A program made the position numbers and the translations under genes. A model generated the notes under the pieces. The model searched no databases. It worked only from the letters and a program-made list of their open reading frames with translations, and was not told the DNA's origin. Below, in pieces: positions 1 to 21,591 of a stretch of 21,591 bases of DNA; within the stretch, counting starts at the first letter, position 1; the number at the start of each line of letters is the position of its first letter. This stretch comes from a virus: IMG/VR virus record IMGVR_UViG_3300030517_000001, positions 1 to 21,591 of that record. One strand, given 5' to 3'.

Positions 1-127
1 CGACGCGCTCGGTGGCGAGCGGACAGAGGCATCGGCAAGGGTAAGCGCTCCGTTGCCATTGCCCGCGTCTTCTCATCTCGCGGGGGCCGATCACAACCCA
101 GCGTCCGAAGCAGTCGCCGTCTTTGAT
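1..127. repeat. Terminal overlap, identical to 21465-21591 (circular closure or direct terminal redundancy)
   Basis: Base-by-base identity of cgacgcgctcggtggcgagcgg...cagtcgccgtctttgat at both window ends. Confidence 0.95.
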
Positions 128-163
128 TTGGTGCGCCCTGGGAAGAGTTTCAGGAGCGAGCAT
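1..163 (-). CDS. HNH endonuclease, 5' part. The gene starts at the ATG at 163-161 and continues across the circle junction into 21464..20953.
   Basis: Minus-strand reading from ATG 163 gives MLAPETLPRAHQIKDGDCFGRWVVIGPREM..., in frame with ORF 20953..21558. The TGATG overlap joins it to the stop of the upstream gene. The G-R-W-V-V-I plus C-x-C ... SCGC N-terminal pattern is typical of this phage HNH family. Confidence 0.7.
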   Translation of the reverse strand, partial: MLAPETLPRAHQIKDGDCFGRWVVIGPREMRRRGQWQRSAYPCRCLCPLATERV

Positions 164-570
164 CAGTTCGCCGCCTTCCCGGCCAGAACGCGGGCGGCCC
201 TGATCCGCGCCCGGACGGCGGCAATCATCAGCGGACCATGCTCCTGTCGGAACGGGGGACAGCAGGCACTCCACTCTTCGGTGCCATCCATGAGCTTGCA
301 GGTGACGAGGTAGCGGTCACGGGGGTCGCTCTTGCTGACAATCTGCATTCCGGCTTGGACACAGAGGCCGGCGCGGAAGAGCGTACTTTGTTCGTCTTGG
401 GTGAAGGTGAAGCCAGCGAGGATGCTGGCGATCCGGTCGGTGCGGGTGCGGGCATGCTCCTCGGCAGCAATGTAGCTGCTCTGGCGCTGCTGATCACGGT
501 CCCACAGGCGATCAGAGAGGGCATTTGAGAGGGCGTCAGAACGGGGCTGACGCAGGGTACAATGCGGCAT
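163..570 (-). CDS. Hypothetical protein (~135 aa), first gene of the leftward operon
   Basis: This is the internal Met (MPHCTLRQ...) of ORF 163..714, preceded by GGAGA 8 nt upstream. The region upstream of it is the promoter/inverted-repeat DNA. No family recognised. Confidence 0.5.
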   Translation of the reverse strand: MPHCTLRQPRSDALSNALSDRLWDRDQQRQSSYIAAEEHARTRTDRIASILAGFTFTQDEQSTLFRAGLCVQAGMQIVSKSDPRDRYLVTCKLMDGTEEWSACCPPFRQEHGPLMIAAVRARIRAARVLAGKAAN

Positions 571-660
571 CTGGACAATCTCCCAACTAGGTTGTTCAGC
601 TAGGCTTCGGCGAGGATCACTAGTTCTCGCCGGGGCCGTCTCTTTATTGCTGACACAGTA

Positions 661-689
661 ATTGTACCAGAAAAACTTATCGTTGTCAA
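661..689 (-). promoter_or_regulatory. Leftward sigma70-type promoter, TTGACA-17 nt-TACAAT
   Basis: Minus-strand -35 is at 689-684 and -10 at 666-661, read directly. It lies in the left arm of the 26-bp inverted repeat. Confidence 0.6.
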
Positions 690-733
690 GTTTTATGGAA
701 AAATAATTTGACAACGATAAGTTTTCCTGGTAC
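664..733. repeat. 26-bp inverted repeat (25/26 match), arms 664-689 and 708-733, 18-bp AT-rich spacer
   Basis: gtaccagaaaaacttatcgttgtcaa versus ttgacaacgataagttttcctggtac. Each arm carries one complete promoter. Confidence 0.9.
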
Positions 734-736
734 AGT
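708..736 (+). promoter_or_regulatory. Rightward sigma70-type promoter, TTGACA-17 nt-TACAGT
   Basis: -35 at 708-713 and -10 at 731-736. The GTG start of the next gene is at 743, implying a leaderless or near-leaderless mRNA. Confidence 0.6.
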
Positions 737-742
737 GATGAC

Positions 743-970
743 GTGGAAAACGAAGACCTACTTACTGTGCCTCAGACAGCGGCGGAACTCGGTGTTACAC
801 GAAGCGCGGTTCACATTGCACTTGCAGAGGGCCGGCTGCCATTCGTCGTGAAGTATCAGCAAAAGTTGGTATCTCGCCCCGACCTAGACGCCTACAAGCA
901 GCGGACGCAGCCAGAGGGCGTGAAGAGGGTGGGGAGGCCGAAGAAGGGGCAGAAGGAAGCGACCTCATGA
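743..970 (+). CDS. Excisionase-family / MerR-like HTH (HTH_17-type) DNA-binding protein, 75 aa
   Basis: LLTVPQTAAELGVTRSAVHIALAEGRLPF is the typical HTH_17 signature. It has a basic C-terminal tail and is the first gene of the rightward unit. Confidence 0.7.
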   Translation: MENEDLLTVPQTAAELGVTRSAVHIALAEGRLPFVVKYQQKLVSRPDLDAYKQRTQPEGVKRVGRPKKGQKEATS

Positions 971-1137
971 GGCACACTGTTCTCTTGCCGCCGACCACGT
1001 CCACGACCGCAACCCTCACTCTGGCAGGGACTACCTACACGTTGCCTCTATGGACGCCCTACGTCATTCTTGGCGTTATTTTGGCAATCGCTGGGATTGT
1101 TCTCTTGATAGCATTGAACTCCCGCCGCTCACATTGA
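967..1137 (+). CDS. Small single-pass membrane protein, 56 aa (not in the supplied ORF track)
   Basis: ATGA overlap with the upstream stop. My translation is MRHTVLLPPTTSTTATLTLAGTTYTLPLWTPYVILGVILAIAGIVLLIALNSRRSH, with one clear TM helix followed by a basic anchor. Confidence 0.45.
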   Translation: MRHTVLLPPTTSTTATLTLAGTTYTLPLWTPYVILGVILAIAGIVLLIALNSRRSH

Positions 1138-1141
1138 GCGG

Positions 1142-1681
1142 GTGGCCCGAGGCCATGCCGATCTGGATGCCTACAAACCTCTCACCCCGGAGCGAAGGAG
1201 CCACCACTTGAATACACCTTCTGATACACCTCTCGACAGCCAACCTGACGACCAGATCGCCCACGTTCCGTTCATGGACCCGCCGCCCCGTAGCGCGGAG
1301 GAGAAGCGTGAAGACGCCGAAAAGAAGCGAGAAACCGCCGAGCAAAAGCGAGAAGATGGCGAGACTTCGCGCTACTCGGGCGAGATCAAGCGGCGCGGTG
1401 AGGAAATCGGGCGTAAGTCCAGCGAGAACAGTCGGGAAGTGGCGGAGGACCAGCGCGAGATTACCGAAGGGCAGAGGCGGATCGTGGAACAGCTTCGTAA
1501 GGAAGCCGAGGGAGCGCGCCGGACTGCCGAGGAGGCGCGGGCGGAGGTAGCAAAGTCCCGCGTGATTGCGGAGACCGCCCGAACCATTGCGGAGCAAGCC
1601 CGCGTGGCGGCAGAGGAAAACCGGCAGAGTCTAGCCGGCATTCGAGAAGAGTTGGTGGAACTGCGGAAACGCCTCCGGTAA
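1142..1681 (+). CDS. Highly charged coiled-coil protein, 179 aa (start uncertain: GTG 1142 or ATG 1274)
   Basis: Long E/R/K/A-rich heptad-like stretch (AEEKREDAEKKRETAEQKRED...AEEARAEVAKSRVIAETARTIAEQARVAAEE). Followed by a terminator. Confidence 0.55.
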   Translation: MARGHADLDAYKPLTPERRSHHLNTPSDTPLDSQPDDQIAHVPFMDPPPRSAEEKREDAEKKRETAEQKREDGETSRYSGEIKRRGEEIGRKSSENSREVAEDQREITEGQRRIVEQLRKEAEGARRTAEEARAEVAKSRVIAETARTIAEQARVAAEENRQSLAGIREELVELRKRLR

Positions 1682-1782: not shown

Positions 1783-2379
1783 TCAGCGGATGTAGAAGAC
1801 TTCTTCTCCCGGCGTCACGCTCGCCCATTCCATACACTCGCCTGTTTCGGCGTCAACAGCCTGCCCTGCTGCATTTCCTTGAAGCCGTCCCCTGAGCGCA
1901 GCCGTGTCCACGCGCTCGGAGACGGCTTCCGGGCTGCGCTCTTTTGCCCAGGCGACAGCGGCAGCCTCCCCGCCCGGCGCGATCCTTAAACGGCTCGGGG
2001 AAGGCCGGTAGCCGATGACGCCGTGCGGGAGGCGCTTGCTCTTGCTGCTGCCTTTGCTCTCTGCCAGTTCGGCCCGAAGGTAGGTCTGGATTGGGCCGCC
2101 GTACTTCCATTCCAGGGCCTCGGCGCGGCGCTCACAGGCGCGCGCCATCGCTTCCATGTTCTCGCGGATCAGCTTCGCCTCGGCGCGGGCGGCGCTGACT
2201 TTGCGGAGCACCCAGTCCACGCCCGCCGCGTCGGTGGGGCAGAAGGCTTCGCCCTCACATTCTTCGGCCTCCTCTACCGCGATCATTCCGTCGCCGTGTC
2301 CGTCCTGCTCCTCGTGCTGGTAGTCCAGCGCCTCGTTTGCGTCAATGATTTCTTGCTCGGTCTGCATTAGTGCTTGCAT
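1783..2379 (-). CDS. Mu Gam-like host-nuclease inhibitor family protein, 198 aa
   Basis: N-terminal coiled coil, then KSKRLPHGVIGYRPSPSRLRI (compare Mu Gam KTANLVTGDVSWRVRPPSVSI) and a C-terminal EEVFYIR tail. Pattern match by eye only. Confidence 0.6.
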   Translation of the reverse strand: MQALMQTEQEIIDANEALDYQHEEQDGHGDGMIAVEEAEECEGEAFCPTDAAGVDWVLRKVSAARAEAKLIRENMEAMARACERRAEALEWKYGGPIQTYLRAELAESKGSSKSKRLPHGVIGYRPSPSRLRIAPGGEAAAVAWAKERSPEAVSERVDTAALRGRLQGNAAGQAVDAETGECMEWASVTPGEEVFYIR

Positions 2380-3301: not shown

Positions 3302-3550
3302 ATGATCCGCAGCAAGCTCAAGTTCCTGCGCGTGAAGAAGGAAGAGGACGAGGGCCGCAAGCTCTCGTACAGAGTCATCACCGGCGAGACAGGCCTGTCC
3401 GAAGGCGTGCTGGTGCGCCTGATGAACTCCAACTTTGAGCGCGTGGAGACGCCGACACTCAACACTCTCTGCCGTTACTTTAGCTGCGGCATCGGGGAGC
3501 TGCTGGAGTACGTCCCTGATGCAGAAGAGAGGAAGGAAGCTGACCGATGA
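3302..3550 (+). CDS. XRE-family (Cro/CI-type) HTH transcriptional regulator, 82 aa
   Basis: The last 82 codons of ORF 2711..3550, with strong RBS GGAGGGAG. LSYRVITGETGLSEGVLVRLMN...TLNTLCRYFSCGIGELLEY is the HTH_XRE pattern. Confidence 0.8.
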   Translation: MIRSKLKFLRVKKEEDEGRKLSYRVITGETGLSEGVLVRLMNSNFERVETPTLNTLCRYFSCGIGELLEYVPDAEERKEADR

Positions 3551-4755: not shown

Positions 4756-4850
4756 CCGAAAGGGTAAAAGCCGATGGAGGTGGAGAACGAGCTGGACGTG
4801 TACGGACCGCCAGGGCGGGACCGGGACTGAGCGATCAGCCCAGCCGTGTG

Positions 4851-4920
4851 TGCCTTCTCTTGTATGCCTTCTCTTGTATGCCTTCTCTTGTATGCCTTCT
4901 CTTGTATGCCTTCTTCTGAG
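4851..4920. repeat. Tandem 14-bp repeat TGCCTTCTCTTGTA, 4 perfect copies plus 1 degenerate
   Basis: Perfect copies at 4851, 4865, 4879 and 4893. The degenerate copy is at 4907-4920. Confidence 0.95.
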
Positions 4921-5053
4921 CCTGATGCCTGAGCCTTCGGCTTTTTCGGGTTTTTCGTGGTGGCAGCGGTCTCAGCCAGCGGGCGACTTCTTTCACTTTT
5001 TTATGCCGCTGCGGGGGGACTTTTTTAGCTTTTTTAGCCTATTTCGCCAGGCT

Positions 5054-5086
5054 GAGGCTGCCGACGAGATCCCCGTCGGCAGCCTC
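5054..5086. repeat. Perfect 12-bp stem hairpin (gaggctgccgac / gtcggcagcctc), 9-nt loop, no U-tract
   Basis: Read directly. Lies in the 590-bp intergenic region. Confidence 0.8.
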
Positions 5087-5112
5087 TGACAAGGCCACTA
5101 TTTCAACGCCGT

Positions 5113-5128
5113 TATTTGACGTCAAATA
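5113..5128. repeat. Perfect 16-bp palindrome TATTTGACGTCAAATA, copy 1
   Basis: Exact palindrome, ~145 bp upstream of the promoter at 5272. Confidence 0.95.
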
Positions 5129-5271
5129 CTGCTGCGGGGACGATCCTGGCCCGCCCCCTCGCGCGTGCCCGCGCGTGTGCCCGCGCAGGAGAAACCAGCG
5201 CAGCCTTTCATCCCTGGTTATACTTCCTGAAATCCGCATTATCGGCAGTATAAATGTTACCGCCCGCGCTG

Positions 5272-5300
5272 TTGACAACGGTATTGATAACGGCTATACT
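5272..5300 (+). promoter_or_regulatory. sigma70 promoter, TTGACA-17 nt-TATACT, upstream of the integrase operon
   Basis: -35 at 5272-5277 and -10 at 5295-5300. Confidence 0.65.
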
Positions 5301-5348
5301 GAGATAGAGAAGGCAGACATGAGGGCCACTCAAGGGAGATCAAAATAG

Positions 5349-5672: not shown

Positions 5673-6624
5673 CGAAATAGGCGAAGCCACAAACCCGGCG
5701 TCGGAGGCTCTTCGCCTTTTGCTGGCCGACACCCGGAGCGCCGACACCCGCCGCGCCTACGAGGCCGACCTGCGCGACTTCTTCGCCTTCCACACCGGCG
5801 AAACGGTTACGCCGGCGAGCCTCGCCAGCTTCTGCGCGCTCCCGTCCGGCCCGCTGGCCTTGGCCCTAAATGGCTACAAGGGGCATTTGCAGGGGCGCGG
5901 CCTGGCCGAGTCCACCGTCAACCGCCGCCTGTCCGCCGTCCGCTCGCTGCTCCGCATGGCCCGGCGCCTGGGGGCCATGGGCGCCGACCCCGCCGGCCTG
6001 GTAACAGGGGAGAAGACGTGGAGCTACCGGGACACGCGCGGCCCCGCGCTGTCTGAGGCCCGCCGGCTGCTGGCCGCGCCGGATACGTCCACCCTGCGCG
6101 GCCTGCGGGACCGGGCGCTGCTAATGCTGCTGTGCGAGAACGCCCTGCGGCGCGGCGAGATCCACAAGTGCGACGTGGGCGACTTCCGGCCCGCCGAGAG
6201 CCGGCTGCTGATCCTGGGCAAAGGCCGGGGCAGCCAGAAGGAGCCGGTGACGCTTTCCCCCGCGACCGTGGCGGCGATCAGCGTGTACCTGGCGGCCCGC
6301 CATAGCCCTTCGGCGGACGCCCCCTTGTTCTGCAACCTGGCCCGGTTCTCGGACGGCGGGGCGCGGCTGACCGGGCGCGGCCTGCTGCACGTCGTCAATG
6401 AGTACGGCCGGCGGGTGCTGGGGAAGGACCTGCACCCCCACGCGCTCCGGCACATGGCGATCACCGCTTGCCTGGACGCGACCGGCGGCGACGTGCGGAC
6501 CGCCCAGCGGCTCTCCCGACACGCCGACGTGCGGACCTTGCAGCGCTACGACGACAACCGGGAGGACCTGCAAGGTAAGGCCACGCAGCTCCTCTCGGCA
6601 CTGTTGCATGGGGATGGGGCTTGA
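5629..6624 (+). CDS. Tyrosine recombinase / integrase, XerC/D-like, 331 aa
   Basis: N-terminal SAM-like domain (RAYEADLRDFFAF, LSAVRSLL). Catalytic-domain motifs LRRGEI, GKG, HPHALRH and the RTLQRY tyrosine. Confidence 0.9.
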   Translation: MDSLSKPYPSSQAPSEIGEATNPASEALRLLLADTRSADTRRAYEADLRDFFAFHTGETVTPASLASFCALPSGPLALALNGYKGHLQGRGLAESTVNRRLSAVRSLLRMARRLGAMGADPAGLVTGEKTWSYRDTRGPALSEARRLLAAPDTSTLRGLRDRALLMLLCENALRRGEIHKCDVGDFRPAESRLLILGKGRGSQKEPVTLSPATVAAISVYLAARHSPSADAPLFCNLARFSDGGARLTGRGLLHVVNEYGRRVLGKDLHPHALRHMAITACLDATGGDVRTAQRLSRHADVRTLQRYDDNREDLQGKATQLLSALLHGDGA

Positions 6625-6858: not shown

Positions 6859-7119
6859 ATGAACGAGACGATCCAGAAGGAGCGCCGCCCTGGCCGCCCG
6901 AGGAAGCGCAGCCCGCGCGGGCCGCAGTACGACCCGATCACCGTGCAGCTCCCGCCGGACCTGGTGACAGCCCTCGACGCCGCCACAGAGGCCGAGGGGC
7001 TGGACAGCCGCAGCGAGGTCATCCGCCAAGCCTGCCGCTCTTACCTGAAGCGCGCGGAGAAGCGACTTGGCGAGAGGCTGGGGATGGTGCCCAGCGGGAC
7101 ATCAGAAAGGACTATCTAA
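6859..7119 (+). CDS. Ribbon-helix-helix (CopG/MetJ-type) DNA-binding protein, 86 aa
   Basis: Internal ATG of ORF 6772..7119. ITVQLPPDLVTALDAATEAEGLDSRSEVIRQACRSYL is the RHH beta-strand plus two helices pattern, preceded by a basic N-terminal arm. Confidence 0.65.
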   Translation: MNETIQKERRPGRPRKRSPRGPQYDPITVQLPPDLVTALDAATEAEGLDSRSEVIRQACRSYLKRAEKRLGERLGMVPSGTSERTI

Positions 7120-7736
7120 TGGCAACTCTTGTACTCAAGATCAACCTGCCAGATGAAGTCAGGGACCAACTCAACGCGCTTCCCGCGCCTCTGAGGGCCA
7201 AGATCAACGACGCGGCCAGGGAACGGGGGCTTGATGGCCTCGGGTTCTTCATCCAAATGAAGACGATGCTCCTTCTCCCCAAAAGCAGCATTACTCTTGA
7301 CCCCATTGAGCAGGACATCCTGAATGAAGTGTGGTTAACCCTGAAGGCTTTTGATGAAGGCGTACTGGGGCAAAATGGAAAGCGGTTAGACGAACTCGCC
7401 GGATTGCAGGCTGACCAGGAAGAAAACAAAGTGGTCACAGTAGATGAAGAGAGCATCGCGCGCCTCGCCAATTCACGCATCAAGGTTTCCCAGATTGCGA
7501 TGGAGCATACGAGACTTGGCCTGACACCCGAACAGATCGCCGAGGCCCATCCGCATCTGTCGCAGCACCAAGTCTATGCGGCCCTTGCCTTCTACTACGG
7601 CCACAAAGACGCCATGGATGCCCAGATCGCCGCGTCCCTGACATTCGCTGACCAGGAGCGCCTAGAGGCCGGACCGTCGCCGCTCGCTGCCCGGTTGCGG
7701 TCTGAGGGGCGGCTGCCAGCAGGACGCGCCGCGTGA
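7119..7736 (+). CDS. DUF433-domain protein (putative antitoxin) with ~120-aa N-terminal extension, 205 aa
   Basis: C-terminal RIKVSQIAMEHTRLGLTPEQIAEAHPHLSQHQVYAALAFYYGH matches DUF433. TAATG overlap with the RHH gene. The N-terminal half is visibly lower in GC. Confidence 0.65.
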   Translation: MATLVLKINLPDEVRDQLNALPAPLRAKINDAARERGLDGLGFFIQMKTMLLLPKSSITLDPIEQDILNEVWLTLKAFDEGVLGQNGKRLDELAGLQADQEENKVVTVDEESIARLANSRIKVSQIAMEHTRLGLTPEQIAEAHPHLSQHQVYAALAFYYGHKDAMDAQIAASLTFADQERLEAGPSPLAARLRSEGRLPAGRAA

Positions 7737-7746
7737 AGGGTTACGA

Positions 7747-8094
7747 ATGAGCCTCGCTCTCTACACGGACGAAAACGTCCTCGGGCAGATCGTCAGCGGG
7801 CTGCGCCGGCGCGGGGTGGACGTACTGACCGTAGTCGAAGACGAACGAACCGGCATCCCCGACCCGGAGGTCCTGGACCGGGCGACGGCGCTTTCCCGGC
7901 TCCTGTTCAGCCAGGACGACGATCTGCTCCGGGAGGCGAAGAAGCGGCAGGAGAACGGGGAGGCATTCGTCGGCGTGGTCTATGGGCACATCCTGCGGGT
8001 GAGTGTCGGCCAGGCTATCGAAGACCTGGAAGTGATCGCAGGCGCCGGCGATTTGGCCGACTTCGCCAATCGGGTGGAATATCTGCCTTTATGA
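7747..8094 (+). CDS. DUF5615-family PIN-like nuclease domain protein (putative toxin), 115 aa
   Basis: LYTDENVLGQIVSGLRRRGVDVLTV...IPDPEVLDRA...LLFSQDDD matches the DUF5615 pattern. This is the canonical partner of DUF433. Confidence 0.65.
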   Translation: MSLALYTDENVLGQIVSGLRRRGVDVLTVVEDERTGIPDPEVLDRATALSRLLFSQDDDLLREAKKRQENGEAFVGVVYGHILRVSVGQAIEDLEVIAGAGDLADFANRVEYLPL

Positions 8095-8930: not shown

Positions 8931-8934
8931 ACGT

Positions 8935-10029: not shown

Positions 10030-10437
10030 ATGGATTATAGCACAGGAAGCCCAAAAACACAATCCCCCTATTCCTACCACCGCTACCCGGTCGAAGAGCT
10101 GCGTCGCCTTCCGGTCCGCGACAACCCCCGCTGCGAGACGCTGAGCTACGAACTCACGGCGGCCCCCGGCATGAAGAACTCCCACACTGGAAGGCCGCGA
10201 ACACATGGGCATGGGGCCGTGCGGCTTTTCGGCGGCTTCATCGCCGCCGTCTGCGTTGCACAGGATGCCGGCGAGTGGTTCCTGGAAGCACAGATCGCCC
10301 CATTTGATACGGAGCGGAATGGACGGGCGACGATGGAGTTCTCGCCGCAGATCCTCGCTGACATCTACCGGGTCGTGCAGCAGCACCAGATCGCAGGCCA
10401 GGCCCGCTCCTACGGGCGCGGGGAGGGCCGTAACTGA
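10030..10437 (+). CDS. Hypothetical protein, 135 aa, translationally coupled to the primase
   Basis: Internal ATG of ORF 9919..10437 with GGAGAAG 5 nt upstream. High GC3 in frame. Its TGA stop shares one base with the primase ATG (...ACTGATGCC). Confidence 0.5.
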   Translation: MDYSTGSPKTQSPYSYHRYPVEELRRLPVRDNPRCETLSYELTAAPGMKNSHTGRPRTHGHGAVRLFGGFIAAVCVAQDAGEWFLEAQIAPFDTERNGRATMEFSPQILADIYRVVQQHQIAGQARSYGRGEGRN

Positions 10438-13208: not shown

Positions 13209-13750
13209 GCGCCCAAGTGAACTACCCGCGCGGAAGCGGCAGGACCGCCCGTCCGGTGGCCCCACCCCGGTTGCCACAAGAGCCGACCGGCCCGCCATCG
13301 GGCACTAGTGCCCCGGAAGACGGCGGCCGGTCGCAGGATCAGGCCCGCGCCCGCCGCCGCAACGTGCGAATCGAGGACGCGGAGCAGGCTGCCTATGTCG
13401 CCGAGGTGGATGCCGCGATCGCGCGGGATCTCCCCGGTGCCGACTGCATCTTCAGCATCCCGAACGCGAACGCCGCCGGCCCGATTGTCGGGCAGACGCT
13501 CAAGGAGACGGGCCGGCGGGCGGGCGTCCCGGACCTGCTGATCGCCGTGCCACGCGAGGTCGCCGGCATCCGTTACGCTGGCTGCTTCTTGGAGATGAAG
13601 CGACCCGCCGGCGCGATCTCGGACGTGTCGGCGGAGCAGCGCGGATGGCTGGACCGGCTGGCGGCGCGCGGCTACATGGCCGTCGTCGTCTTCGGGTGGC
13701 GCGAGGCGTGGGCAGTCACGCGGCGCTACCTGGAGTGGGACGAAGACTGA
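13205..13750 (+). CDS. VRR-NUC domain nuclease (start uncertain: GTG 13205, 13217 or 13364)
   Basis: GVPDLLIAV...GCFLEMKRPAG..S..Q..WLDRLAARGY.AVVV fits the PD-(D/E)xK VRR-NUC core. The N-terminal ~50 aa are low complexity. Confidence 0.7.
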   Translation: MSAQVNYPRGSGRTARPVAPPRLPQEPTGPPSGTSAPEDGGRSQDQARARRRNVRIEDAEQAAYVAEVDAAIARDLPGADCIFSIPNANAAGPIVGQTLKETGRRAGVPDLLIAVPREVAGIRYAGCFLEMKRPAGAISDVSAEQRGWLDRLAARGYMAVVVFGWREAWAVTRRYLEWDED

Positions 13751-13799: not shown

Positions 13800-16700
13800 A
13801 TGCCCGGCTCAGAAGTAAGGATCCGTGTACTCTTTGATTCCGCCGTCGCCAAGGCGGCCGTCGCCGACTTCGCCCGCCAATCCACGACGGCAAACAAAGC
13901 CATCGCCGCCGAGGCACGGGTCGCCTCGACGGCCACACTGGGCCTGGCCCACGCCGTGCAGACGGTGGAGCGCGCGGCCGTCTCCGCCTCCCGTGCCCAG
14001 CTCCTCCATGCCCAGGCGTCGGCCAACGTCGCCAAAGCCTCCCGGATCACGGCGGAAAGCCTGGGGGCCGAGGCTGCGGCTGCCGCAAAAGCAACTGCGG
14101 CTTTTGAGCGTAAGACAGCCGTGCAGGCCCGCGCCGCCGACCGCGCCCTAGTCTCCGCCGACAATCGCATTAACCGTGACATGAGCTGGCTGGCACGGGA
14201 CGAGAAAGATGTCGGGAGTCGGCGGCGACAGATAGCGGGTCAAGCGGCGGGTGCCGCGACGACTGGCGGGGCCGCCGTGCTTGTTGGGCTGGGGGCCACG
14301 TTCGGCCCGATGTCCAACTTCGACCAGGACCTGCGGAACGTCAACTCGCTGGCAAAGGTCTCCGAGGCCGAGTTCAAAAAGCTGCATGATTCCGTTCTGG
14401 ACATCAGCAAGGACCCTCTCGTCCGGCAGATGCCCGCCGACCTCGCCAAAGGTCTGTACGACATCGTTTCGTCGGGCTATTCGGGCAAGCAGGCCCTCGA
14501 CCTACTGCGGGTCTCGGCGGTAGGCGCGGGCGCGGGCATGACCGACACGCTCACAGCGACGAAGGTGATGACTTCCGTACTTCAATCCGGCATCGGCGGC
14601 GTCACTTCGGCCTCTCAGGCAATGGACGTTCTTTTCCAGGAAGTCAATTTCGGGAAGAACACTTTCGAGGAGCTTGCCAGCCAGATCGGGCCGGTACTCC
14701 CTCTGGCCGCGAAGATGGGCGTGACCCTCCCCGAAGTCAGCGCGGCGCTTGCCACGATGACCCTGCAAGGCATCAGCGCGGGCGAGGCTTCCACGGAACT
14801 CAATCAACTCCTCATTCAGCTCAACACGAATAGTCCCCAGGCCGCCAAAGAGATGGACAAACTCGGCATCGTTCATGGCATGGCGGCGGTCCGGGCGGAA
14901 GGTCTGACCGGTGCGCTCAAGAATGTGATCGAGAAGACTCGGGGCCACGATGACGCCCTCCGGCACGTTTTTCCGCGCCTAGAGAGTTTCATCGGATACC
15001 TTGCCCTGTCCAAGAATAACGGGCAGGACTACACGGCCATGCTCGATCATATGGCACACGCCACTGACGGGCTGGGGGCAACCCAGGCCGCCGCCCAGGA
15101 GCAGGCGAAAGGCGCGGCGTTCCAGGCGGACAAGGTGAAGCAAGAGTACGAGCGGCTTGCCATAAGCGTCGGTGAAAAGCTGCTCCCCACTTTTCGAGAG
15201 CTTGGCCGCGAGGCCACTGCGGTTGCCGAGGCGTTTAATAAGCTGACTCCTGAGCAGCAGCAAGCCATCGTTCATGCCCTGGCATTCACGGCGGCCCTCG
15301 CACTCGGTGTTGGATTGCTGACGAAAACGGCTTTCGGCATCCGTGATCTGATGGAGGCGTTAAGTCTAGCCAAGATCTGGTTCGGGGCGCTTGGCGCGGC
15401 GGAAGGGGAGGCGGGCGCGGCGGGCCTGCTCGCCTTCGGGCCGGGCGCGGCCGTCGTTGTCGGGATCGCGGCCCTCGGCGTCGAGCTGATCGCTTTGAAG
15501 AATGATTGGGACGACGTGAAGCGGTCGGAGGACCAGGCCGCGAACTCCGCGATGGCCTACGCCGACAAGCTCAAAGCGCTCAAAGCCGGCACCAATCGGG
15601 ACGCGCTGATCGCCACCAAGAACGACCTCGGACGCGAGAGCGGCGACCTCAAAAGCGCGATGCTCGTCGCGGGCCAGATCAAGCCGCTGCCGGGCCAGAA
15701 CGCCCAGGACATGAAGATCGTCCGCGATGCCAGCCTGCGGAGTCAGCTCGGCGACAGTGGCTACGACACGGCCAACAACAGCTACCGGACGATGGCCGGG
15801 GCGCAGGCCCGTCTCAACGCGCTCCTGCCGGACCTGGCGAAAGTGACGAACGCCCTCCACGCGCAGACGCCCTCGGCCAACGCCGCGAACCGGATGGCGG
15901 ACACCCATGCAGACCAGCTCGCGCCGTATCAGGTCCCTCTCCTCAAAGCCGTCGGACAGTTCCACGATGCTTCGGTGCAGTGCGGCGAGTTCATCCGCAA
16001 GGGCGCGTCGGCGTTCGGCATGGTCGGCAACATCCAGAGCGCGGCCAATGCCGCCTTGAAGGGCAAGAACGTAGTCAAGAGCGACGGCGTGGACAGCCAC
16101 GGCGCACCGCGTTATCCGAATGGCACCGTGATCTACTTCGGGCATCATGGGGCGCAACACTTCGTTTCCACCTATGTCAACGATCGGGGCGAGCAGAAGG
16201 TCGTCGAGAACACCGAGGCGGGCCAGGGCAAGGGCCGCTGGCGCGTCCGGGCCGACCGCGATCTGTCCCGCATTGCGGCGGAGTTTCACGGCCACCAGGT
16301 CGCGTTTCACCTGCCCGGCGTGACGGGGCCGACCGCAGCGCAAGGCGGGCTACCCCCCACCAAATACAACGGCGGCACGTTCGGCGACGCCGGGCCGGAT
16401 AAGTCGGCGGCGGCCGCCCTGGTGGAGAAGGCGGGACTGGCGGCGGACGACGCCAAACGCGCCTACGAGCAGGCGACCAAAGCCTTCGAGGACACCAAAA
16501 GCGTTCATTATCTCGCCGCCGCCGAGTCCCTGCGCCACACACAGGCGACCCGCGAGATCGAGGAAGCCAGGGCGAACAGGGCGAAGGCCGACGCTGTGAA
16601 AGACCCCGAAACGGCGCCCAACGGGGTCGCCTTTGAGCGCAAGCGCCGTGACATCCTTGCTTCCGCCGCGAAGGACATCAAGGCGCTGGAGGAACAGGCG

Positions 16701-18956
16701 GGCGGGACGGCGGAAGATCACCGCAAGGCCGCCGCCGACCTCGCCGTCAACGTCCTCAACGGGCGCCTTGAATCGGCCAATCAAGCGGTCTCCCGGCTGG
16801 AAGCCCTCGCCGCCGTCTCGACCGACCCGAAGAACGCCGACGCGCTCCTGGCCGCCTACAAGACCCAGGCCCAGGCACAGATGGAACTCCTACGGGCGAC
16901 CCTCAAACACACGCTGGCCGACATCCCCAACACGCCGGGGAGGCAGACCCAGCGCCAGGCATTGGTCTCAGGCGAACAGACGCAGGAGCTAAGGGTCATG
17001 GGCGATCTGGCGACCAAGACGGCAGAGGTAGACACGCGGCGCATCGAAGCCAGTCAACGGCTTTTGACACTCCAAAGAGAGCAGGCGGCGGCTTCTCAGG
17101 CGGAACAAGACGCGCTCCTCGCGGCGGCTCAAATCGAGGCTGAACGCCAGCCTTTGCGGGAAGAGATTCATCAGGCGAAATTGAAGGAGCTGAATGCGAC
17201 CCGACGCATGGCGCTCCTCGACAGCGACGCCAAATACAGGCCCCTCCTGGACCGGGCGACCCCGGACACGCGGCCCGGCCTCGAAACTCAGAGCAACGCC
17301 GCCGCCAGGCGGATCAACGAGAATTACGGCACTGCCGTCGGCGCGGAGAACATCGCGTTCGGCACGCAGGAGCGGGAAGCGGCCAACGCCGCCATCTCGA
17401 CCCGCGCCGACCGACTGCGGACCGAGGCGGGCCTGACCGACGACCTGACCGCGAAGATGGCGAAGCTGGCCCAGGCGTATGACCTGATGATCGGCGTCGA
17501 ACCGGACCCGGCGGCGGCGGGGCTAATGCGCCAGCAGAAACAGGACGAGCAGGACAAGCTCGGCTTGCGCCGGGACGCCGACGCCGCCCAGCGTTCCCTT
17601 GCCGGCGGGATGGTTGCCAATGACCCAGCCGCGATCACCGCCGCGCTGGACGCCCTGAAGGCGCTGACGACCGACGCCCGCGCCAACCGCGAGGAACAGG
17701 CGTCGGCACGGGGCGAGTACGGGACGGCGATCCGGGACCTGACCGAGCAGCTCCGCCTGTCGCCGCGCGAGGCGGTCTCCCGGATCAACGACGAGCGCCC
17801 GAACATGACGGCGGGCGAGCTGGCCTCGGCGACGGCGGCGGCGAAGTCCATCCTGGACGGGATGCTGGATCGCAGCTTCACGAGCATTGACACCCTGCAC
17901 GACCCCCGCGACCGCAAGCGCGCGCTGGACGGCCTGAAGAAGTCCGTGGACGCCGATCCGGTCTACCGGGCGGCGGGCGTCACCGGCGACGCCGACAAGA
18001 AGATCACCGAGCGGATCGCCTCGACCTTGAAACGGTCGGGCATCGTGGACGAGTTCATGGGCGAGCTGTCGGCGGGCGCGGGCCGGGCGTCCTCGGGCGT
18101 TGTCCACGCCCTGCTCAATCCGAAGGACCGCAAAAACATCGGCAAGGCGTTCTGGGCGGACATCGCCAGCGCCGCCGAGGGCGCATTGGGGAACGTCGTG
18201 CAGAAGGAGGTCACGCACGGCCTGGAGGGCCTGCTGGGGGCCGGGACGGACGCGCTGGGGAACATCGTGGGCGGACACAAAAAGCGGACGCCGGGCAGCC
18301 TGGCCGACCCCAGCCAGGCGAAGTCTGATCCTAAGAGTGCCGGGGGCGCATCCGCGACAGGCGGGGCGCTGGGCAGCATCACCGGCATCCTGGGGCCACT
18401 GCTGGGAGACAAGGGCAGGACGGGCGACGCGCGGGTCGTGGACACCATGCACGTCGCCAACCTGGTCGTCGCCGGGACCACGGGCAAGCCGGGCGTCAAG
18501 CCGGGCGGCGTCGCCGGCGCGGACAGCGGCGTCGCCGGGGACATCGGGACGGGCCTCGGCATCGCCTCCCTCCTGGCCGGTCCACTGTTCGGCGCGGGCG
18601 CGGGCGCGGCGGTCAGCGGCATCTCCTCGATCTTCGGCAGCATCGGCAGCCTGTTCCACTTCGCCGAAGGCGGCATCGTGCCGGGGCCGGCGGGCGCGGG
18701 CGATGTGATCCACGCGCTGCTGTCTCCCGGTGAGGCCGTCATCCCCGCCGCGCGCGTCCGTGCGTTCCGGGACGCCGCACCGACCGCCCGCGCGTTCCGG
18801 CTGCCGGAGGGCAGCGACCAGGGCACACAGGCGCAGGCGCAGACCGTCAACTACGAAGCTCACTACCACCAGCCCGTCTTCCACAACGCCGAAGACATTG
18901 ACCGTGAGAACCGCCGCAACGCGCAGCGGCTCAGGACCGCCTTCACTGTCGGCTGA
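13800..18956 (+). CDS. Tail tape-measure protein (TP901/PhageMin_Tail-type core) with internal CHAP/NlpC-P60-like domain, 1718 aa
   Basis: Core is DLRNVNSLAKVSEAEF...GLYDIVSSGYSG...AMDVLFQEVNFGKNTFEELASQIGPVLPLAA...ATMTLQGISAGEASTELNQLL. Hydrophobic Gly/Ala segments and long coiled coils follow. C-terminal FAEGGIVPGP...LSPGEAVIPA motif. Confidence 0.85.
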   Translation: MPGSEVRIRVLFDSAVAKAAVADFARQSTTANKAIAAEARVASTATLGLAHAVQTVERAAVSASRAQLLHAQASANVAKASRITAESLGAEAAAAAKATAAFERKTAVQARAADRALVSADNRINRDMSWLARDEKDVGSRRRQIAGQAAGAATTGGAAVLVGLGATFGPMSNFDQDLRNVNSLAKVSEAEFKKLHDSVLDISKDPLVRQMPADLAKGLYDIVSSGYSGKQALDLLRVSAVGAGAGMTDTLTATKVMTSVLQSGIGGVTSASQAMDVLFQEVNFGKNTFEELASQIGPVLPLAAKMGVTLPEVSAALATMTLQGISAGEASTELNQLLIQLNTNSPQAAKEMDKLGIVHGMAAVRAEGLTGALKNVIEKTRGHDDALRHVFPRLESFIGYLALSKNNGQDYTAMLDHMAHATDGLGATQAAAQEQAKGAAFQADKVKQEYERLAISVGEKLLPTFRELGREATAVAEAFNKLTPEQQQAIVHALAFTAALALGVGLLTKTAFGIRDLMEALSLAKIWFGALGAAEGEAGAAGLLAFGPGAAVVVGIAALGVELIALKNDWDDVKRSEDQAANSAMAYADKLKALKAGTNRDALIATKNDLGRESGDLKSAMLVAGQIKPLPGQNAQDMKIVRDASLRSQLGDSGYDTANNSYRTMAGAQARLNALLPDLAKVTNALHAQTPSANAANRMADTHADQLAPYQVPLLKAVGQFHDASVQCGEFIRKGASAFGMVGNIQSAANAALKGKNVVKSDGVDSHGAPRYPNGTVIYFGHHGAQHFVSTYVNDRGEQKVVENTEAGQGKGRWRVRADRDLSRIAAEFHGHQVAFHLPGVTGPTAAQGGLPPTKYNGGTFGDAGPDKSAAAALVEKAGLAADDAKRAYEQATKAFEDTKSVHYLAAAESLRHTQATREIEEARANRAKADAVKDPETAPNGVAFERKRRDILASAAKDIKALEEQAGGTAEDHRKAAADLAVNVLNGRLESANQAVSRLEALAAVSTDPKNADALLAAYKTQAQAQMELLRATLKHTLADIPNTPGRQTQRQALVSGEQTQELRVMGDLATKTAEVDTRRIEASQRLLTLQREQAAASQAEQDALLAAAQIEAERQPLREEIHQAKLKELNATRRMALLDSDAKYRPLLDRATPDTRPGLETQSNAAARRINENYGTAVGAENIAFGTQEREAANAAISTRADRLRTEAGLTDDLTAKMAKLAQAYDLMIGVEPDPAAAGLMRQQKQDEQDKLGLRRDADAAQRSLAGGMVANDPAAITAALDALKALTTDARANREEQASARGEYGTAIRDLTEQLRLSPREAVSRINDERPNMTAGELASATAAAKSILDGMLDRSFTSIDTLHDPRDRKRALDGLKKSVDADPVYRAAGVTGDADKKITERIASTLKRSGIVDEFMGELSAGAGRASSGVVHALLNPKDRKNIGKAFWADIASAAEGALGNVVQKEVTHGLEGLLGAGTDALGNIVGGHKKRTPGSLADPSQAKSDPKSAGGASATGGALGSITGILGPLLGDKGRTGDARVVDTMHVANLVVAGTTGKPGVKPGGVAGADSGVAGDIGTGLGIASLLAGPLFGAGAGAAVSGISSIFGSIGSLFHFAEGGIVPGPAGAGDVIHALLSPGEAVIPAARVRAFRDAAPTARAFRLPEGSDQGTQAQAQTVNYEAHYHQPVFHNAEDIDRENRRNAQRLRTAFTVG

Positions 18957-19064: not shown

Positions 19065-19075
19065 AGGAAGTCAGC

Positions 19076-19140
19076 CAATTTTCTAATTTTCTCATGTCGG
19101 TCGAGCAATTCGGTTGAGCAATTTCGTAATTTTGTCATGC
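19076..19140. repeat. Two copies of a ~22-bp AT-rich motif CAATTT(C/T)(G/C)TAATTTT(G/C)T(C/T)ATG
   Basis: Copies at 19076-19096 and 19119-19140. A third copy is at 20340-20361 and a partial one at 19603-19613. Confidence 0.85.
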
Positions 19141-19173
19141 AGGTGGACGTCGCCGAAGCGGGCGGGAGGAGCC

Positions 19174-19197
19174 GCATTATTTGACGTCAAATAATGC
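19174..19197. repeat. Perfect 24-bp palindrome GCATTATTTGACGTCAAATAATGC, copy 3 of the 16-bp core
   Basis: Overlaps the last codons and the stop of the DUF488 gene (..LFDVK*). Confidence 0.95.
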
Positions 19198-19575: not shown

Positions 19576-19698
19576 GCTCTTCTTCTTTCTTCTCTTTTGC
19601 TTTTGTAATTTTGCTTTCGTGACGGTCTCAAGCTTTTACTAGAGCTTTCAGATGAGGGCGGAGCCAGAGCGGTTGACCTGGCTCCGCGTCCTCTGGCC

Positions 19699-19998
19699 TT
19701 AACTCAACCTCCTTGTCTGTTTCCTCGCATACTGAGCGCCCAGATTGTAGGCACGGGCGCTTTCGGCACCCGCGACGGAGGCCCTGGCCGCCTCCAACTG
19801 ATGGCTGAAGGCTGGCGGGCGCGATGCCACCGGACCCTGCGCCCATTCCTCGACGTCCTGGAGGAAGTCGCTGAGGAACGTCGGCACGAGTGCGGTGATC
19901 GCCCGTTCCACCTCGGCCGGCGTGTAGAGGTCGCGGTCCTCCATAACAGCATGGGCTTCGTGGGCGGTCCTGGAGATCTCCTTTTCAGAAGGGTTCAT
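19699..19998 (-). CDS. Small protein paralog C, 99 aa
   Basis: Internal Met of ORF 19699..20304, with ATGA overlap to paralog B. Shares the H..M.D...Y[TS]..[QE]V..A motif. Confidence 0.55.
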   Translation of the reverse strand: MNPSEKEISRTAHEAHAVMEDRDLYTPAEVERAITALVPTFLSDFLQDVEEWAQGPVASRPPAFSHQLEAARASVAGAESARAYNLGAQYARKQTRRLS

Positions 19999-20231
19999 AC
20001 GGCCTTTCCCTTCTCGGCCCTCGTCTCGGCCTGGAGCGCCTTTTCCAGCTCGTCGGGGCGCTCGAACTCGAACTCGGTGACGTTCTCGACGAAGTGGCAG
20101 GCGGTGTGGCGAAGATAGGCTTCCAGGGCGCGGCGGACCTGGCCGACGGTGTATTGGTCCTTGTCCACCATGCAGTGATGGTAGCGGGCCGCTGCTTGGG
20201 CGAGGTCGCCGTCGCTGATCTCGATGGTCAT
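19995..20231 (-). CDS. Small protein paralog B, 78 aa
   Basis: Internal Met (MTIEISDGDL...) of ORF 19995..20282, with an AAGGAA RBS. Confidence 0.55.
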   Translation of the reverse strand: MTIEISDGDLAQAAARYHHCMVDKDQYTVGQVRRALEAYLRHTACHFVENVTEFEFERPDELEKALQAETRAEKGKAV

Positions 20232-20339
20232 TCTTCTTGTTCCTTTCTTCCTTTCCTCGTGGAAGGTCCGGTCTTCGTGCATGTTCTAGGAGGCGCCGGA
20301 CCACCTGGTCGTCGGTCCGGCGTGGGCAATCACGAGAAC

Positions 20340-20361
20340 CAATTTCGTAATTTTGTTATGC
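20340..20361. repeat. Third copy of the 22-bp AT-rich motif (CAATTTCGTAATTTTGTTATGC)
   Basis: 21/22 identical to 19119-19140. Lies in the intergenic gap between paralogs A and B. Confidence 0.85.
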
Positions 20362-20398
20362 TCCCAGAGGTTGGCCGGTCGGCGCTTCTTTTCGCTGC

Positions 20399-20620
20399 CT
20401 ATAAGATGCCCAGCGCCTCGTTGAACTCGGTAGGCCGGCACTCGGGATAGTCGCCCGTGACGCCCTCCGGGTAGGTGAGGAAGGTATTGAGCACTCCGGT
20501 GATGCTGGCGACGAAGGCAGCCCGGACCTGCTCGAAGCTGTAGGCGGCACCGTCCTCCATCACGCGGTGGGTCTTGCGCGCCCCGTCGGTGATCAAGTCT
20601 TCGCTGATGTCGAGTGTCAT
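20399..20620 (-). CDS. Small protein paralog A, 73 aa
   Basis: AAGGAG RBS. MTLDISEDLITDGARKTHRVMEDGAAYSFEQVRAAF aligns with paralogs B and C. Confidence 0.6.
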   Translation of the reverse strand: MTLDISEDLITDGARKTHRVMEDGAAYSFEQVRAAFVASITGVLNTFLTYPEGVTGDYPECRPTEFNEALGIL

Positions 20621-20758
20621 TGTCTCGGTCTCCTTTGTGCGGGTCGGTTTGCTTTCTCGAACGGTGATTGGTTTGCTTCCGGTTGGGCGGTAGGTTTCTG
20701 GTCGGAAATCTGGTTAGGAAAATGGGGTTAGCAGCGGACCCGCCAATCACTTGATCAA

Positions 20759-20956
20759 TCACTTGATGTAAAACACCTCCTCGGCGGGCTGGAAGGCGGC
20801 GAACGGCAGGGCCTCCCCCGTGGCCGTCAGGCGGTCGCTGAGGGCCTTCTTGTCCAGGTGGAGGGTCACGGCGTCCGGCAGGTGCTCTTGTGCCCAGGAC
20901 AGCGCGGCGGCGGGGTCGGTGACACTGACGGCGGCGGGCTTGGTGCGGTAGATCAT
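20759..20956 (-). CDS. Stand-alone Gam C-terminal-domain-like protein, 65 aa
   Basis: IYRTKPAAVSV...AALSWAQEH.PDAV...EEVFYIK aligns with GYRPSPSRLRI...AAVAWAKERSPEAV...EEVFYIR of the 198-aa Gam-like protein. ATGA overlap with the HNH stop. Confidence 0.55.
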   Translation of the reverse strand: MIYRTKPAAVSVTDPAAALSWAQEHLPDAVTLHLDKKALSDRLTATGEALPFAAFQPAEEVFYIK

Positions 20957-21591
20957 CTCTTGCCCTCCTGCACAGGGGACCCAATAGCAGCCTCAGCTTC
21001 CCACCCCAGCCGCAGGCGTTTCATCAATCCCGTGTAGGACACAGTGCAGCGACGGTCAGCGGCCCAGTCTTGACAGCACTTGGTTTCCCCGAAGGCTGTC
21101 AGAAGGTGCGTTCTACGACTGTTCCTGCGCTGTGTCCCGTCCGTCGCCCACCGGCAGTTGTCCGCCTCGTAATTGCCGTCGTTGTTGATTCGGTCAATGG
21201 AGAGGTCGTCGGCGTAGCCATTGGCGAGCGCCCAGGCGCGGAATTCCTCATAGTCTAGCCATTCACGGCAGACGGTGATGCCGCGCCCGCCGTAGTTGTC
21301 GTAACTGCCTGCGTTCGGGTTGTTGCATCGGGCAAGCATTGAGCGCCATGTGTTCCAAAGGCGCTCGCCGCTTCGCCCGTGTGATCGTCGCAGATTGTGG
21401 ACGTTCTCTAAGGCGAGGCACCCGCAGGAGCGGGAGTCATGTCTGAGGAGGTCATCGGCGAACACGACGCGCTCGGTGGCGAGCGGACAGAGGCATCGGC
21501 AAGGGTAAGCGCTCCGTTGCCATTGCCCGCGTCTTCTCATCTCGCGGGGGCCGATCACAACCCAGCGTCCGAAGCAGTCGCCGTCTTTGAT
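20953..21591 (-). CDS. HNH endonuclease (phage HNH_3-like), 3' part. The full gene is 224 aa and spans the circular junction.
   Basis: WNTWRSMLARCNNPN..SYDNYGGRGITVCREWL..F..F..WA..NGY...LSIDRINNDGNYEADNCRWAT...Q..N is the typical phage HNH signature. Confidence 0.8.
   Translation of the reverse strand: MKDGDCFGRWVVIGPREMRRRGQWQRSAYPCRCLCPLATERVVFADDLLRHDSRSCGCLALENVHNLRRSHGRSGERLWNTWRSMLARCNNPNAGSYDNYGGRGITVCREWLDYEEFRAWALANGYADDLSIDRINNDGNYEADNCRWATDGTQRRNSRRTHLLTAFGETKCCQDWAADRRCTVSYTGLMKRLRLGWEAEAAIGSPVQEGKR
21465..21591. repeat. Terminal overlap, identical to 1-127
   Basis: Same 127-nt string as the window start. Confidence 0.95.

Follow-up and report, generated by a model that had tools for sequence, protein, structure and literature searches.

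How does a small circular element propagate if the only virion protein that it recognizably encodes is the ruler of a phage tail? This question is raised by the IMG/VR record IMGVR_UViG_3300030517_000001, of which the whole 21,591-nt stretch (hereafter, the window) was analyzed. The window carries a gene for a 1718-aa tape measure protein (TMP) in a setting that, judged by gene content, looks like that of a satellite: its own replication genes, a recombinase, a lysogeny-type switch, and a single virion gene. With confidence somewhat above even, we favor the view that the window holds the entire genome of a small helper-dependent satellite, or satellite-like phage-plasmid, which replicates itself and builds chimeric tails with its own TMP. 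An initial annotation, made from the sequence alone, had proposed a satellite that hijacks a helper with its own TMP. Of this proposal, the capsid-less layout and the genuine TMP held, and a candidate helper was found, whereas no support was obtained for the predicted change in tail length (with this candidate helper), the cell-wall-hydrolase domain, or the candidates for TerS-like and scaffold-like proteins.

A tape measure gene on a circle

The product of the large gene is a genuine TP901-type tape measure and belongs to a bona fide virion protein family, as the initial annotation had it. It scores 109.1 bits against TIGR01760 (cut-off, 28.8) and 88.7 bits against PF10145 (cut-off, 33.2; E = 6e-25), is Ala-rich and helical, and contains two transmembrane-like hydrophobic segments as well as a C-terminus rich in Gly. 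The closest relative is P0002 (1723 aa), which is 86% identical over 1714 residues and is encoded within the tail module of a phage. In the window, by contrast, the neighbors of the TMP gene do not form a tail module: a VRR-NUC nuclease gene lies upstream, and a convergent DUF488 gene lies downstream. Comparison with the P0002 gene yields a synonymous divergence (dS) of 0.47 and a ratio of nonsynonymous to synonymous substitution rates (dN/dS) of 0.19 overall and below 0.3 in each 200-codon block, with only 5 codons of indel over 5.2 kb; the gene has thus evolved as one for a working protein. Such purifying selection argues that the TMP represents neither spliced-in phage reads nor a decaying remnant. 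The best-conserved cores (dN/dS of ~0.01-0.1) cover approximately aa 200-400 and 1200-1400, near-invariant blocks fall at aa ~200-400 and ~1300-1450, and divergence from the phage protein is highest at the N-terminus, the C-terminus, and aa 800-1200. A scan of IMG/VR with the window TMP returned nothing, and exact-protein look-ups for the TMP, the HNH endonuclease, and the DUF488 protein of the window found no record.

The cell-wall-hydrolase domain ascribed to the TMP was not detected by Pfam searches of three C-terminal segments (E <= 1), phmmer against PDB, a 3-sequence profile against PDB, or hhalign against P0057, a TMP that bears CHAP/NlpC. By eye, a QCxxF...GxxHFV...EN pattern can be traced at aa ~725-800 (positions 15900-16200), conserved in the TMP of a second circle, L015 (described below). 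This pattern, QC..F ... P(N/G)(G/D).V.Y ... H, resembles the catalytic core of NlpC/P60 or CHAP, with no support from hidden Markov models, profiles, or structure models; the single-sequence AlphaFold2 (AF2) model of aa 705-850 had a pLDDT of 44 and was unfit for a fold search.

Equally central is what accompanies the TMP. Every accepted open reading frame (ORF) was scanned against Pfam and PHROGs, and selected ORFs were also scanned against NCBIfam and PADLOC. No ORF matched capsid, portal, terminase, tail tube, chaperone, or baseplate families, and apart from the recombinase, the primase-helicase, and the TMP, no accepted gene exceeds ~279 aa, bearing out the absence of capsid, portal, and terminase genes described earlier. 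A portal and a large terminase are excluded because no ORF of that size remains, and for these reasons the element is not an autonomous tailed phage. The many long antisense ORFs can be attributed to the high G+C content of the window (~63%), which generates shadow frames; those antisense to the TMP and primase genes display the corresponding pattern, GC1 > GC3.

The two ends of the window are identical over 127 nt (positions 1-127 equal 21465-21591), a direct repeat that defines a circular unit of 21,464 nt. Could this be an assembly artefact, i.e., a false circle or a chimera of element and phage joined via the repeat? In keeping with such a scenario, every other assembly breaks inside the TMP gene (at 14049, 15910, 16761, and 16811), three contigs end exactly at 19257, and positions 16812-19256 are covered at full identity by the window assembly alone. 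Nevertheless, an independent MEGAHIT contig from ENA (k141_104243; 18,860 nt; loci L006 and L011), which matches the window at 99.7-100% identity, runs from window position 19388 through 21464/1 to 16811, contains the 127-mer once, so that the junction is read through, and joins the VRR-NUC gene to 3 kb of the TMP gene. The window gene order recurs in JGI/Logan contigs of three further samples. Furthermore, in L022 (JAABUH010031620.1), an unrelated contig of a fourth metagenome, from a separate project, the 3' end of a TMP gene converges on a DUF488 gene in the same orientation as in the window. The DUF488 gene of L022 is 95% identical to that of the window at the nucleotide level, a different 960-nt cassette lies between it and the TMP 3' end, and the L022 TMP is a third allele, 87.9% identical to the window TMP and 81.5% to the phage TMP. 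Because L022 reproduces the TMP-DUF488 architecture, the contig breaks reflect co-occurring alleles and a variable cassette site rather than a false join, and the TMP DNA, being only 86% identical to the phage copy, does not derive from spliced-in phage reads. We give an artefact very little credence: the window is a real 21,464-nt circle, as the initial annotation had described it, and its closure is independent of any single assembler.

Candidate helper, related elements, and probable host

The phage encoding P0002 occupies a 49,940-nt JGI contig (L001) and is a complete lambda-like siphovirus, with genes for TerS (phrog_4102), TerL (Terminase_6N/6C), portal, S49 head protease, gpD-like HDPD, and gpE-like major capsid protein (MCP); its tail genes are arranged in the order Neck1, a 489-aa tail protein, small ORFs, TMP, Dit, fn3, and a 1218-aa distal tail protein. 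A phage with tail genes around a matching TMP, as the initial annotation had recommended looking for among co-occurring phages, is available from the same metagenome series, and we consider an L001-type siphovirus the candidate helper. DNA similarity between window and phage is confined within the TMP gene (13989-18944); outside it, the two have neither DNA nor protein sequence in common. When the phage contig was sought by a metagenome scan, nothing was returned. In L001, an IS605-type TnpB gene (OrfB_IS605/Cas12f1-like_TNB; 15274-16482, - strand) is located directly 3' of the TMP gene, before Dit. Two further proteins, P0004 and P0012 (encoded on contigs of 12.5 kb and 21.1 kb), were rejected as belonging to the element family, being embedded in ordinary phage structural modules.

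The next-closest TMP, P0003, is encoded by L015 (CAXUKS010000067.1; 14,856 nt), which is circularly permuted: window TMP aa 5-491 and 923-1496 match its right end, where the match runs off, and aa 1618-1718 match its left end. L015/L016 form a circle of ~14.8 kb, binned in an Armatimonadales metagenome-assembled genome (MAG). Besides the TMP (43% identity over aa 5-965; 57-58% in the best N- and C-terminal segments), this circle shares with the window the recombinase (61% identity), the DUF488 protein (73%), and the small proteins orf135 (53%), orf99 (43%), and orf73 (33%). Since a second circle has both this backbone and a palindrome upstream of the TMP gene, the window belongs to a family of elements. 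The replication module of L015 differs, with an O/DnaD-like initiator, and directly 5' of its TMP gene L015 carries a head-maturation protease (S49, phrog_53) that is 59% identical to that of the phage and that the window lacks; the observations on the protease and the TMP concern L015 positions 8546-9961 and 12804-13117. The protease is a possible capsid-remodeling or scaffold gene. Nor does a prophage in the MAG of L015 (L017) stand out as a helper, with only 43% identity between the TMPs of L017 and L015.

Exchange of modules extends beyond these two circles. A scan of public collections with the primase yielded only a 7.7-kb mosaic, L005 (IMGVR_UViG_3300031470_000103, 2144-4816), in which the helicase half is 84% identical to the window primase-helicase and the N-terminal domain is different, indicating that replication modules are exchanged among elements. 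The flanks of L005 are mostly unrelated, and no TMP was found within the 7.7 kb. L010 (JGI Ga0500111_002936, 5358-11364) is a different element with a large serine recombinase, adjoining apparently chromosomal genes; its orf65-orf73-orf95-orf99-DUF488 module is 98% identical to window positions 19257-20951, accompanied by a Gam gene, and the contig ends at 19257. The DUF488 scan found one relative, 47% identical, on a 99.6-kb phage contig, and the recombinase scan found only 29%-identical relatives.

The most likely host, judged from sequence relationships, belongs to Armatimonadota. In a genome scan with the TMP alignment, all six loci came from Armatimonadota MAGs (Armatimonadales, Capsulimonas, Fimbriimonas, and Chthonomonadaceae), with L015 binned in one of them. 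We know of no satellites in this phylum; if our reading is correct, the element would be the first reported for Armatimonadota.

Gene complement, control sites, and packaging

Family matches were found for each member of the gene set initially listed (recombinase, primase-helicase, VRR-NUC, HNH, Gam-like protein, and toxin-antitoxin pair). The features of the window are as follows, with HTH denoting helix-turn-helix and RHH ribbon-helix-helix.

1..127: terminal direct repeat (circular overlap of the assembler), identical to 21465-21591 and present in single copy in the ENA contig
163..570, - strand: orf135, small family-conserved protein, 53% identical to the product of L015 981-1394
663..734: inverted repeat with 30-nt arms and two mirrored sigma-70-like promoters, within the divergent control region that separates orf135 (-) from the HTH_17 gene (+)
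743..970, + strand: HTH_17 excisionase/AlpA-like DNA-binding protein, 75 aa (PF12728, 1.6e-6; phrog_66, 2.4e-5)
1208..1681 (longest from 1142), + strand: charged coiled-coil protein, 157-179 aa, coiled-coil-type matches only
1783..2379, - strand: Mu Gam-like DNA-end protection protein (PF07352, 4.7e-7; phrog_2205, 1.6e-10)
3302..3550, + strand: Cro/CI-type HTH_26 regulator (PF13443, 7e-12), divergent from the leftward Gam operon
4756..5348: long non-coding region with a tandem repeat, a T-tract motif, a hairpin, palindrome copy 1, and a promoter at 5272-5300
5719..6624, + strand: tyrosine recombinase, integrase or Xer-like resolvase (PF00589, 4e-18; phrog_1, 5e-30)
6859..8094, + strand: RHH (CopG) regulator, then a DUF433/DUF5615 (PIN-like) toxin-antitoxin-type pair, by family matches
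8103..9606, + strand: two proteins, one of 275 aa (HTH_17, extended by a long acidic/coiled tail) and one of 223 aa with a zinc ribbon at its C-terminus; no terminase or capsid match
10437..13208, + strand: primase-helicase (Zn_ribbon_DnaG, Toprim, D5_N, and DUF5906, an SF3 helicase)
12869..12981: AT-rich inverted repeat with 54-nt arms and iterated CTACACTTC, in the low-complexity, linker-coding part of the primase-helicase gene
13205..13750, + strand: VRR-NUC nuclease (PF08774, 4e-6; phrog_824, 6e-32)
13800..18956, + strand: TMP, 1718 aa, 24% of the element (PF10145, TIGR01760, and 13 PHROG TMP families)
19076..19197: two copies of a 22-nt repeat and palindrome copy 3, between the TMP and DUF488 stop codons
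19177..19575, - strand: family-conserved DUF488 protein, 73% identical to that of L015
19699..20956, - strand: four small ORFs of 99, 95, 73, and 65 aa, with orf99 and orf73 conserved in L015
20953..21339, - strand: HNH endonuclease, 128 aa from the ATG at 21339 (phrog_3377, 4e-48; phrog_374, 7e-48; public gene call)

The primase-helicase passes the TIGR01613 (P4 family) threshold with 109.3 bits against a cut-off of 108.7. For the tyrosine recombinase, the start is ambiguous: the longest ORF (from 5629) gives 331 aa, compared with 301 aa in public gene calls. The coiled-coil protein, suggested earlier to be scaffold-like, matches phrog_17134 and phrog_23208 ("virion structural protein", 2e-7); with matches of the coiled-coil type only and no conservation in L015, the suggestion finds no backing. 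Much the same applies to the TerS-like candidate (8091-8930), for which an HTH match is the sole support and which is not conserved in L015 either. The small ORFs at 19699-20956 are, except for orf65, 100% identical in L010. For orf135, only 28 relatives were found among 1.84 billion representatives; no match was obtained in Pfam, PHROGs, NCBIfam, or PDB, neither a PDB search with a profile of the family nor a scan of its individual members against PHROGs returned anything, an alignment scan of public collections produced no confirmed relative, and the single-sequence AF2 model was poor (pLDDT 60, pTM 0.34) and unfit for a fold search. PADLOC identified no known defense system and only weak candidate-family matches, to the DUF488 protein and to orf129 (2738-3127, - strand). 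The latter, located in the leftward Gam operon, displays a SWIM-like zinc-finger pattern (CxC...CxH) and matches candidate family PDC-S62 with 1e-8.

The two promoter switches of the initial annotation are recovered as the divergent regions 570-743 and 3127-3302, both with near-consensus sigma-70 hexamers. In total, 11 promoter-like sites were found, compared with 2.6 expected, including a 12/12 consensus promoter on the Gam operon side of the second region, directed leftward (3200->3172). No tRNA-like attP was apparent, with neither tRNA nor Rfam matches in the window beyond "miRNA" matches at 653-745, which correspond to a long hairpin.

A palindrome, ATTATTTGACGTCAAATAAT, recurs across the family and is probably an operator or promoter element. 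Its window copies are at 5107-5135, 13761-13781, and 19177-19197. Copy 2 (TATTTGACGTCAAATAAT) is 25 nt 5' of the TMP start codon, compared with 21 nt in L015; another copy adjoins the DUF488 stop codon in both the window and L015, and the remaining window copy precedes the recombinase operon. Further copies are present in L015 (2678, 3673, and 9970), L022 (288 and 1183), and L010 (7888), and strain variants have extra copies ahead of inserted cassettes; the palindrome was not found in the fetched phage and prophage loci. Relative to the window, L015 has the DUF488 block in the opposite orientation, and the breakpoint lies at the palindrome. A 22-nt repeat, CAATTT(C/T)(G/C)TAATTTTGT(C/T)ATGC, occurs in pairs near the palindrome (19076-19140; L007 3866 and 3897), with another copy at 20340-20361, between orf95 and orf73, and is probably a further binding site for a regulator.

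The non-coding region 4756-5348 contains five 14-nt units, TGTATGCCTTCTCT, in tandem (4847-4916); the copy number varies, as the ENA copy has 28 nt fewer there, and the units may be candidate iterons or binding sites. The AT-rich inverted repeat at 12869-12981 is a candidate replication origin within the replication gene, reminiscent of the lambda origin, which is embedded in gene O. Region 4756-5348 is also the site of a strain-variable cassette of ~700 nt, inserted at window position ~5057 and flanked by direct repeats of ~61 nt (L007 3860-4560; L008 1-342; L009 1-158; L010 ~7418-7946). The cassette encodes a 141-aa lipoprotein-like protein with a weak match to an Rz-like spanin (E = 0.007), has its own palindrome and repeat motifs, and could be a moron of the superinfection-exclusion or lysis type. 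The divergent left flanks of L007-L009, considered as host DNA or an att site, were rejected as such, being this cassette.

How the element might be packaged is suggested by sizes and one short sequence. The 49.9-kb phage contig corresponds to 2.3 x 21.46 kb or 3.4 x 14.8 kb. With a Terminase_6-type TerL and headful packaging of concatemers into unmodified heads, a gene controlling capsid size would be unneeded. A blastn search (word size 7) for a cos or pac match between element and phage was negative, including the terS-proximal 1 kb. A k-mer search identified an exact 18-mer, CTTTTTCGGGTTTTTCGT, common to window positions 4941-4958 and the phage terS gene. It occurs once in 35 kb of phage sequence, within terS, where it encodes FFGFF by rare codons, and the probability of a chance match is ~6e-4, an estimate that assumes uniform composition for what is a low-complexity motif. 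Close variants exist in L015, L022, L010, and the L007 cassette, and the general motif, TTTTT(C/T)GGGTTTTT(C/T)G, is found at window 4941-4958, L023 688-705, L015 ~2773-2788 (- strand), and L007 3744, 3950, and 4552. Pac sites often reside within terS, as in P22, SPP1, and staphylococcal pac phages. The 18-mer may thus be a pac-site mimic of the helper terS, or a promoter element whose match is coincidental, and we treat it as a lead only.

Alternative readings and known satellites

Collectively, these observations are consistent with the following life cycle; what we infer in it is the helper relationship, the building of the TMP into tails, the way in which DNA is packaged, integration, and any selective advantage. 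The element would be maintained by its tyrosine recombinase, a CI/Cro and Xis/AlpA-type switch, and the toxin-antitoxin pair, and would replicate by means of the P4-family primase-helicase together with VRR-NUC and Gam. When a helper grows in the same cell, the element would replicate and express its TMP, around which the chaperones, tail tube, and Dit/Tal hub of the helper would assemble into chimeric tails. At 86% identity, the chaperones and hub of the helper would probably accept the element TMP, and this near-cognate relationship may explain the absence of a chaperone or hub gene. Tail length would remain unchanged at ~258 nm, given 0.15 nm of tail per TMP residue, the figure used in the initial annotation; because the two TMPs have 1718 and 1723 aa, no change in length is expected with this candidate helper, contrary to the original suggestion. 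Element DNA would be packaged into helper heads, probably as concatemers, since no capsid-size gene is present. The benefit may be that a private TMP escapes defenses or exclusion aimed at the helper TMP; PLE11/Rta and superinfection exclusion directed at TMPs offer analogies.

Several points weigh against this reading. Encapsidation, induction, and helper dependence are predictions from sequence, and phage and element, although from the same JGI/SRA metagenome series, were not seen in one sample. TerS, a cos site, an Rpp/Ppi-like redirector, a capsid-size factor, and a tail assembly chaperone were not found in the element, and the T-tract 18-mer is a low-complexity motif found repeatedly where cassettes begin or end, as a promoter element might be. 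The best NCBIfam matches of the recombinase are XerC/D-like and under the cut-off, and the fetched genome, metagenome, and viral loci revealed neither an integrated copy nor an att site; hence, of the "integrase" in the initial annotation, the tyrosine recombinase stands, and the integrase role is an assumption. For about half of the small ORFs, no homology could be detected, and a small structural protein may hide among them, both single-sequence AF2 models being unusable. Finally, the L015 TMP changes frame once (at 7.6x coverage), owing to either an assembly error or pseudogenization.

That last point is among those that would suit a decayed prophage or phage-plasmid remnant, still replicating and circularizing, with the TMP as a leftover that has no current role. 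Prophage decay can give rise to satellites and cryptic elements, and the frameshift in the L015 TMP, as well as the lone head-maturation protease beside it, could be signs of such decay. In the window, however, the TMP is intact over 1718 codons and under the purifying selection described above, and three diverged alleles (window, L022, and L015) retain the TMP beside the same palindrome and DUF488; moreover, the element has nothing else in common with the phage and is therefore not a deletion derivative of it. We consider this origin improbable as an explanation of the present element, and the same degree of doubt attaches to a plasmid-like or integrative element that keeps a phage-derived TMP as an anti-phage poison, interfering with tail assembly or DNA ejection of infecting phages and so shielding the host population. 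Satellites and prophages commonly encode such interference with tail assembly (PMC11364771), with Rta in PLE11 as an instance, and the failure to find a packaging gene or cos site agrees with such a role; conserved TMP cores combined with divergent termini and a divergent central part (aa 800-1200) could fit a dominant-negative protein. Yet a 5.2-kb gene occupying 24-35% of a tiny genome would be a costly decoy, full-length conservation at the same length with a low dN/dS fits a working tape measure better, and PLEs, the sole tested case, use the satellite TMP for transmission.

Much less credible is a small autonomous virus with capsid and packaging proteins diverged beyond recognition among the small ORFs. 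Although about half of these ORFs lack homologues of known function, none has the size of a portal or TerL, the SF3 helicase is the only ATPase, the largest unknown ORFs encode a membrane protein, HTH proteins, and a zinc-ribbon protein, and a 258-nm tape measure calls for tail tube, chaperone, hub, and terminator genes, all of which are missing. A helper-dependent satellite with chimeric tails accordingly remains our preferred reading. A bolder version, which we put forward only tentatively and regard as rather unlikely in its entirety, is an undescribed satellite family of Armatimonadota that contributes nothing but a TMP, kept 80-88% identical by recurrent exchange with helpers, that is packaged as concatemers via a pac mimic of terS, and whose private TMP evades exclusion or defenses aimed at the TMP, e.g., Sie-type blocks by lipoproteins; the element itself has a lipoprotein cassette that varies among strains.

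The statement in the initial annotation that no satellite had been reported to supply a TMP is outdated. PLEs of Vibrio cholerae, which parasitize the helper phage ICP1, form chimeric tails (Mathur, Boyd et al., Nature 2026; preprint January 2025; PMC12987554): the PLE TMP, together with a chaperone and a hub protein, replaces the ICP1 TMP in PLE virions, and TMP deletion cuts transduction by 96-99.9%. EPIPs of Mycolicibacterium aichiense also encode a TMP (Qian et al., bioRxiv 2025; preprint December 2025; PMC12822802), and putative tmp genes have been noted in PLE-like elements and some cf-PICIs (PMC12987554, Extended Data Fig. 10). The authors of both the PLE and EPIP studies suggested that tail manipulation is widespread.

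The element resembles PLEs in lacking capsid genes, in size (~18-21 kb), in having its own replication genes, recombinase, and TMP, and, presumably, in relying on the helper for tube, fibers, and heads. Unlike the window, however, PLEs carry a tail assembly chaperone, usually a baseplate hub (BhuB), and the TcaP scaffold, none of which was found among the window ORFs, and the PLE TMP is ~20% identical to that of ICP1 and 95 aa shorter, whereas the window TMP is 86% identical to that of the candidate helper and of practically the same length. PLEs further combine a myovirus helper, a large serine recombinase, a RepA_N initiator, and a Vibrio host; the window element has a tyrosine recombinase and a P4-type primase-helicase, and its helper and host would be a siphovirus and a member of Armatimonadota. 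With EPIPs, the element has in common a small circular satellite genome, a siphovirus-type helper, and a TMP; EPIPs differ in their size of 11 kb, serine integrase, TerS, head-tail adaptor/stopper and scaffold/MCP annotations, and longer, variable tails, so that only the TMP is shared at the gene level, and no change in tail length is predicted for the window element.

The recombinase, AlpA/Xis-type HTH protein, P4-family primase-helicase (passing TIGR01613), small size, and absence of virion genes are reminiscent of P4-like satellites and Gram-negative PICIs, for which a TMP has not been described as a core gene. In contrast to P4-like satellites, which are marked by Psu, Sid, and Delta/Ogr-type genes and a P2-type cos site, the window has no such matches in Pfam or PHROGs, and in contrast to PICIs, it has no Rpp/Ppi/TerS/Cpm packaging or capsid-size module. 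An HNH endonuclease and, in some cases, putative tmp genes link it to cf-PICIs, but these encode their own capsids (MCP, portal, protease, TerS/TerL, and connectors) and steal tails, whereas the window presents the opposite arrangement, a single tail gene with head genes lacking. PICMIs and VEIMEs, minimal satellites that are packaged as concatemers, likewise lack capsid-remodeling genes, and for them as for the window element the size is a simple fraction of a helper genome, making multimer packaging plausible; PICMIs and VEIMEs carry no tail genes, and for the window element concatemer packaging is suggested by sizes only.

By gene content, the element falls outside the PLE, PICI, P4, cf-PICI, and EPIP families, distinguished by a TMP as its sole recognizable virion gene, the 86% identity of this TMP to that of a candidate siphovirus helper, and a probable Armatimonadota host. 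It would represent an independent and phylogenetically remote case of a satellite-encoded TMP and the most stripped-down yet, with the TMP taking up a quarter of the genome. The 86% identity between satellite and phage TMPs, against ~20% for PLE and ICP1, points to a different evolutionary regime and may offer a natural system for telling the TMP regions that have to fit the helper from those that may diverge.

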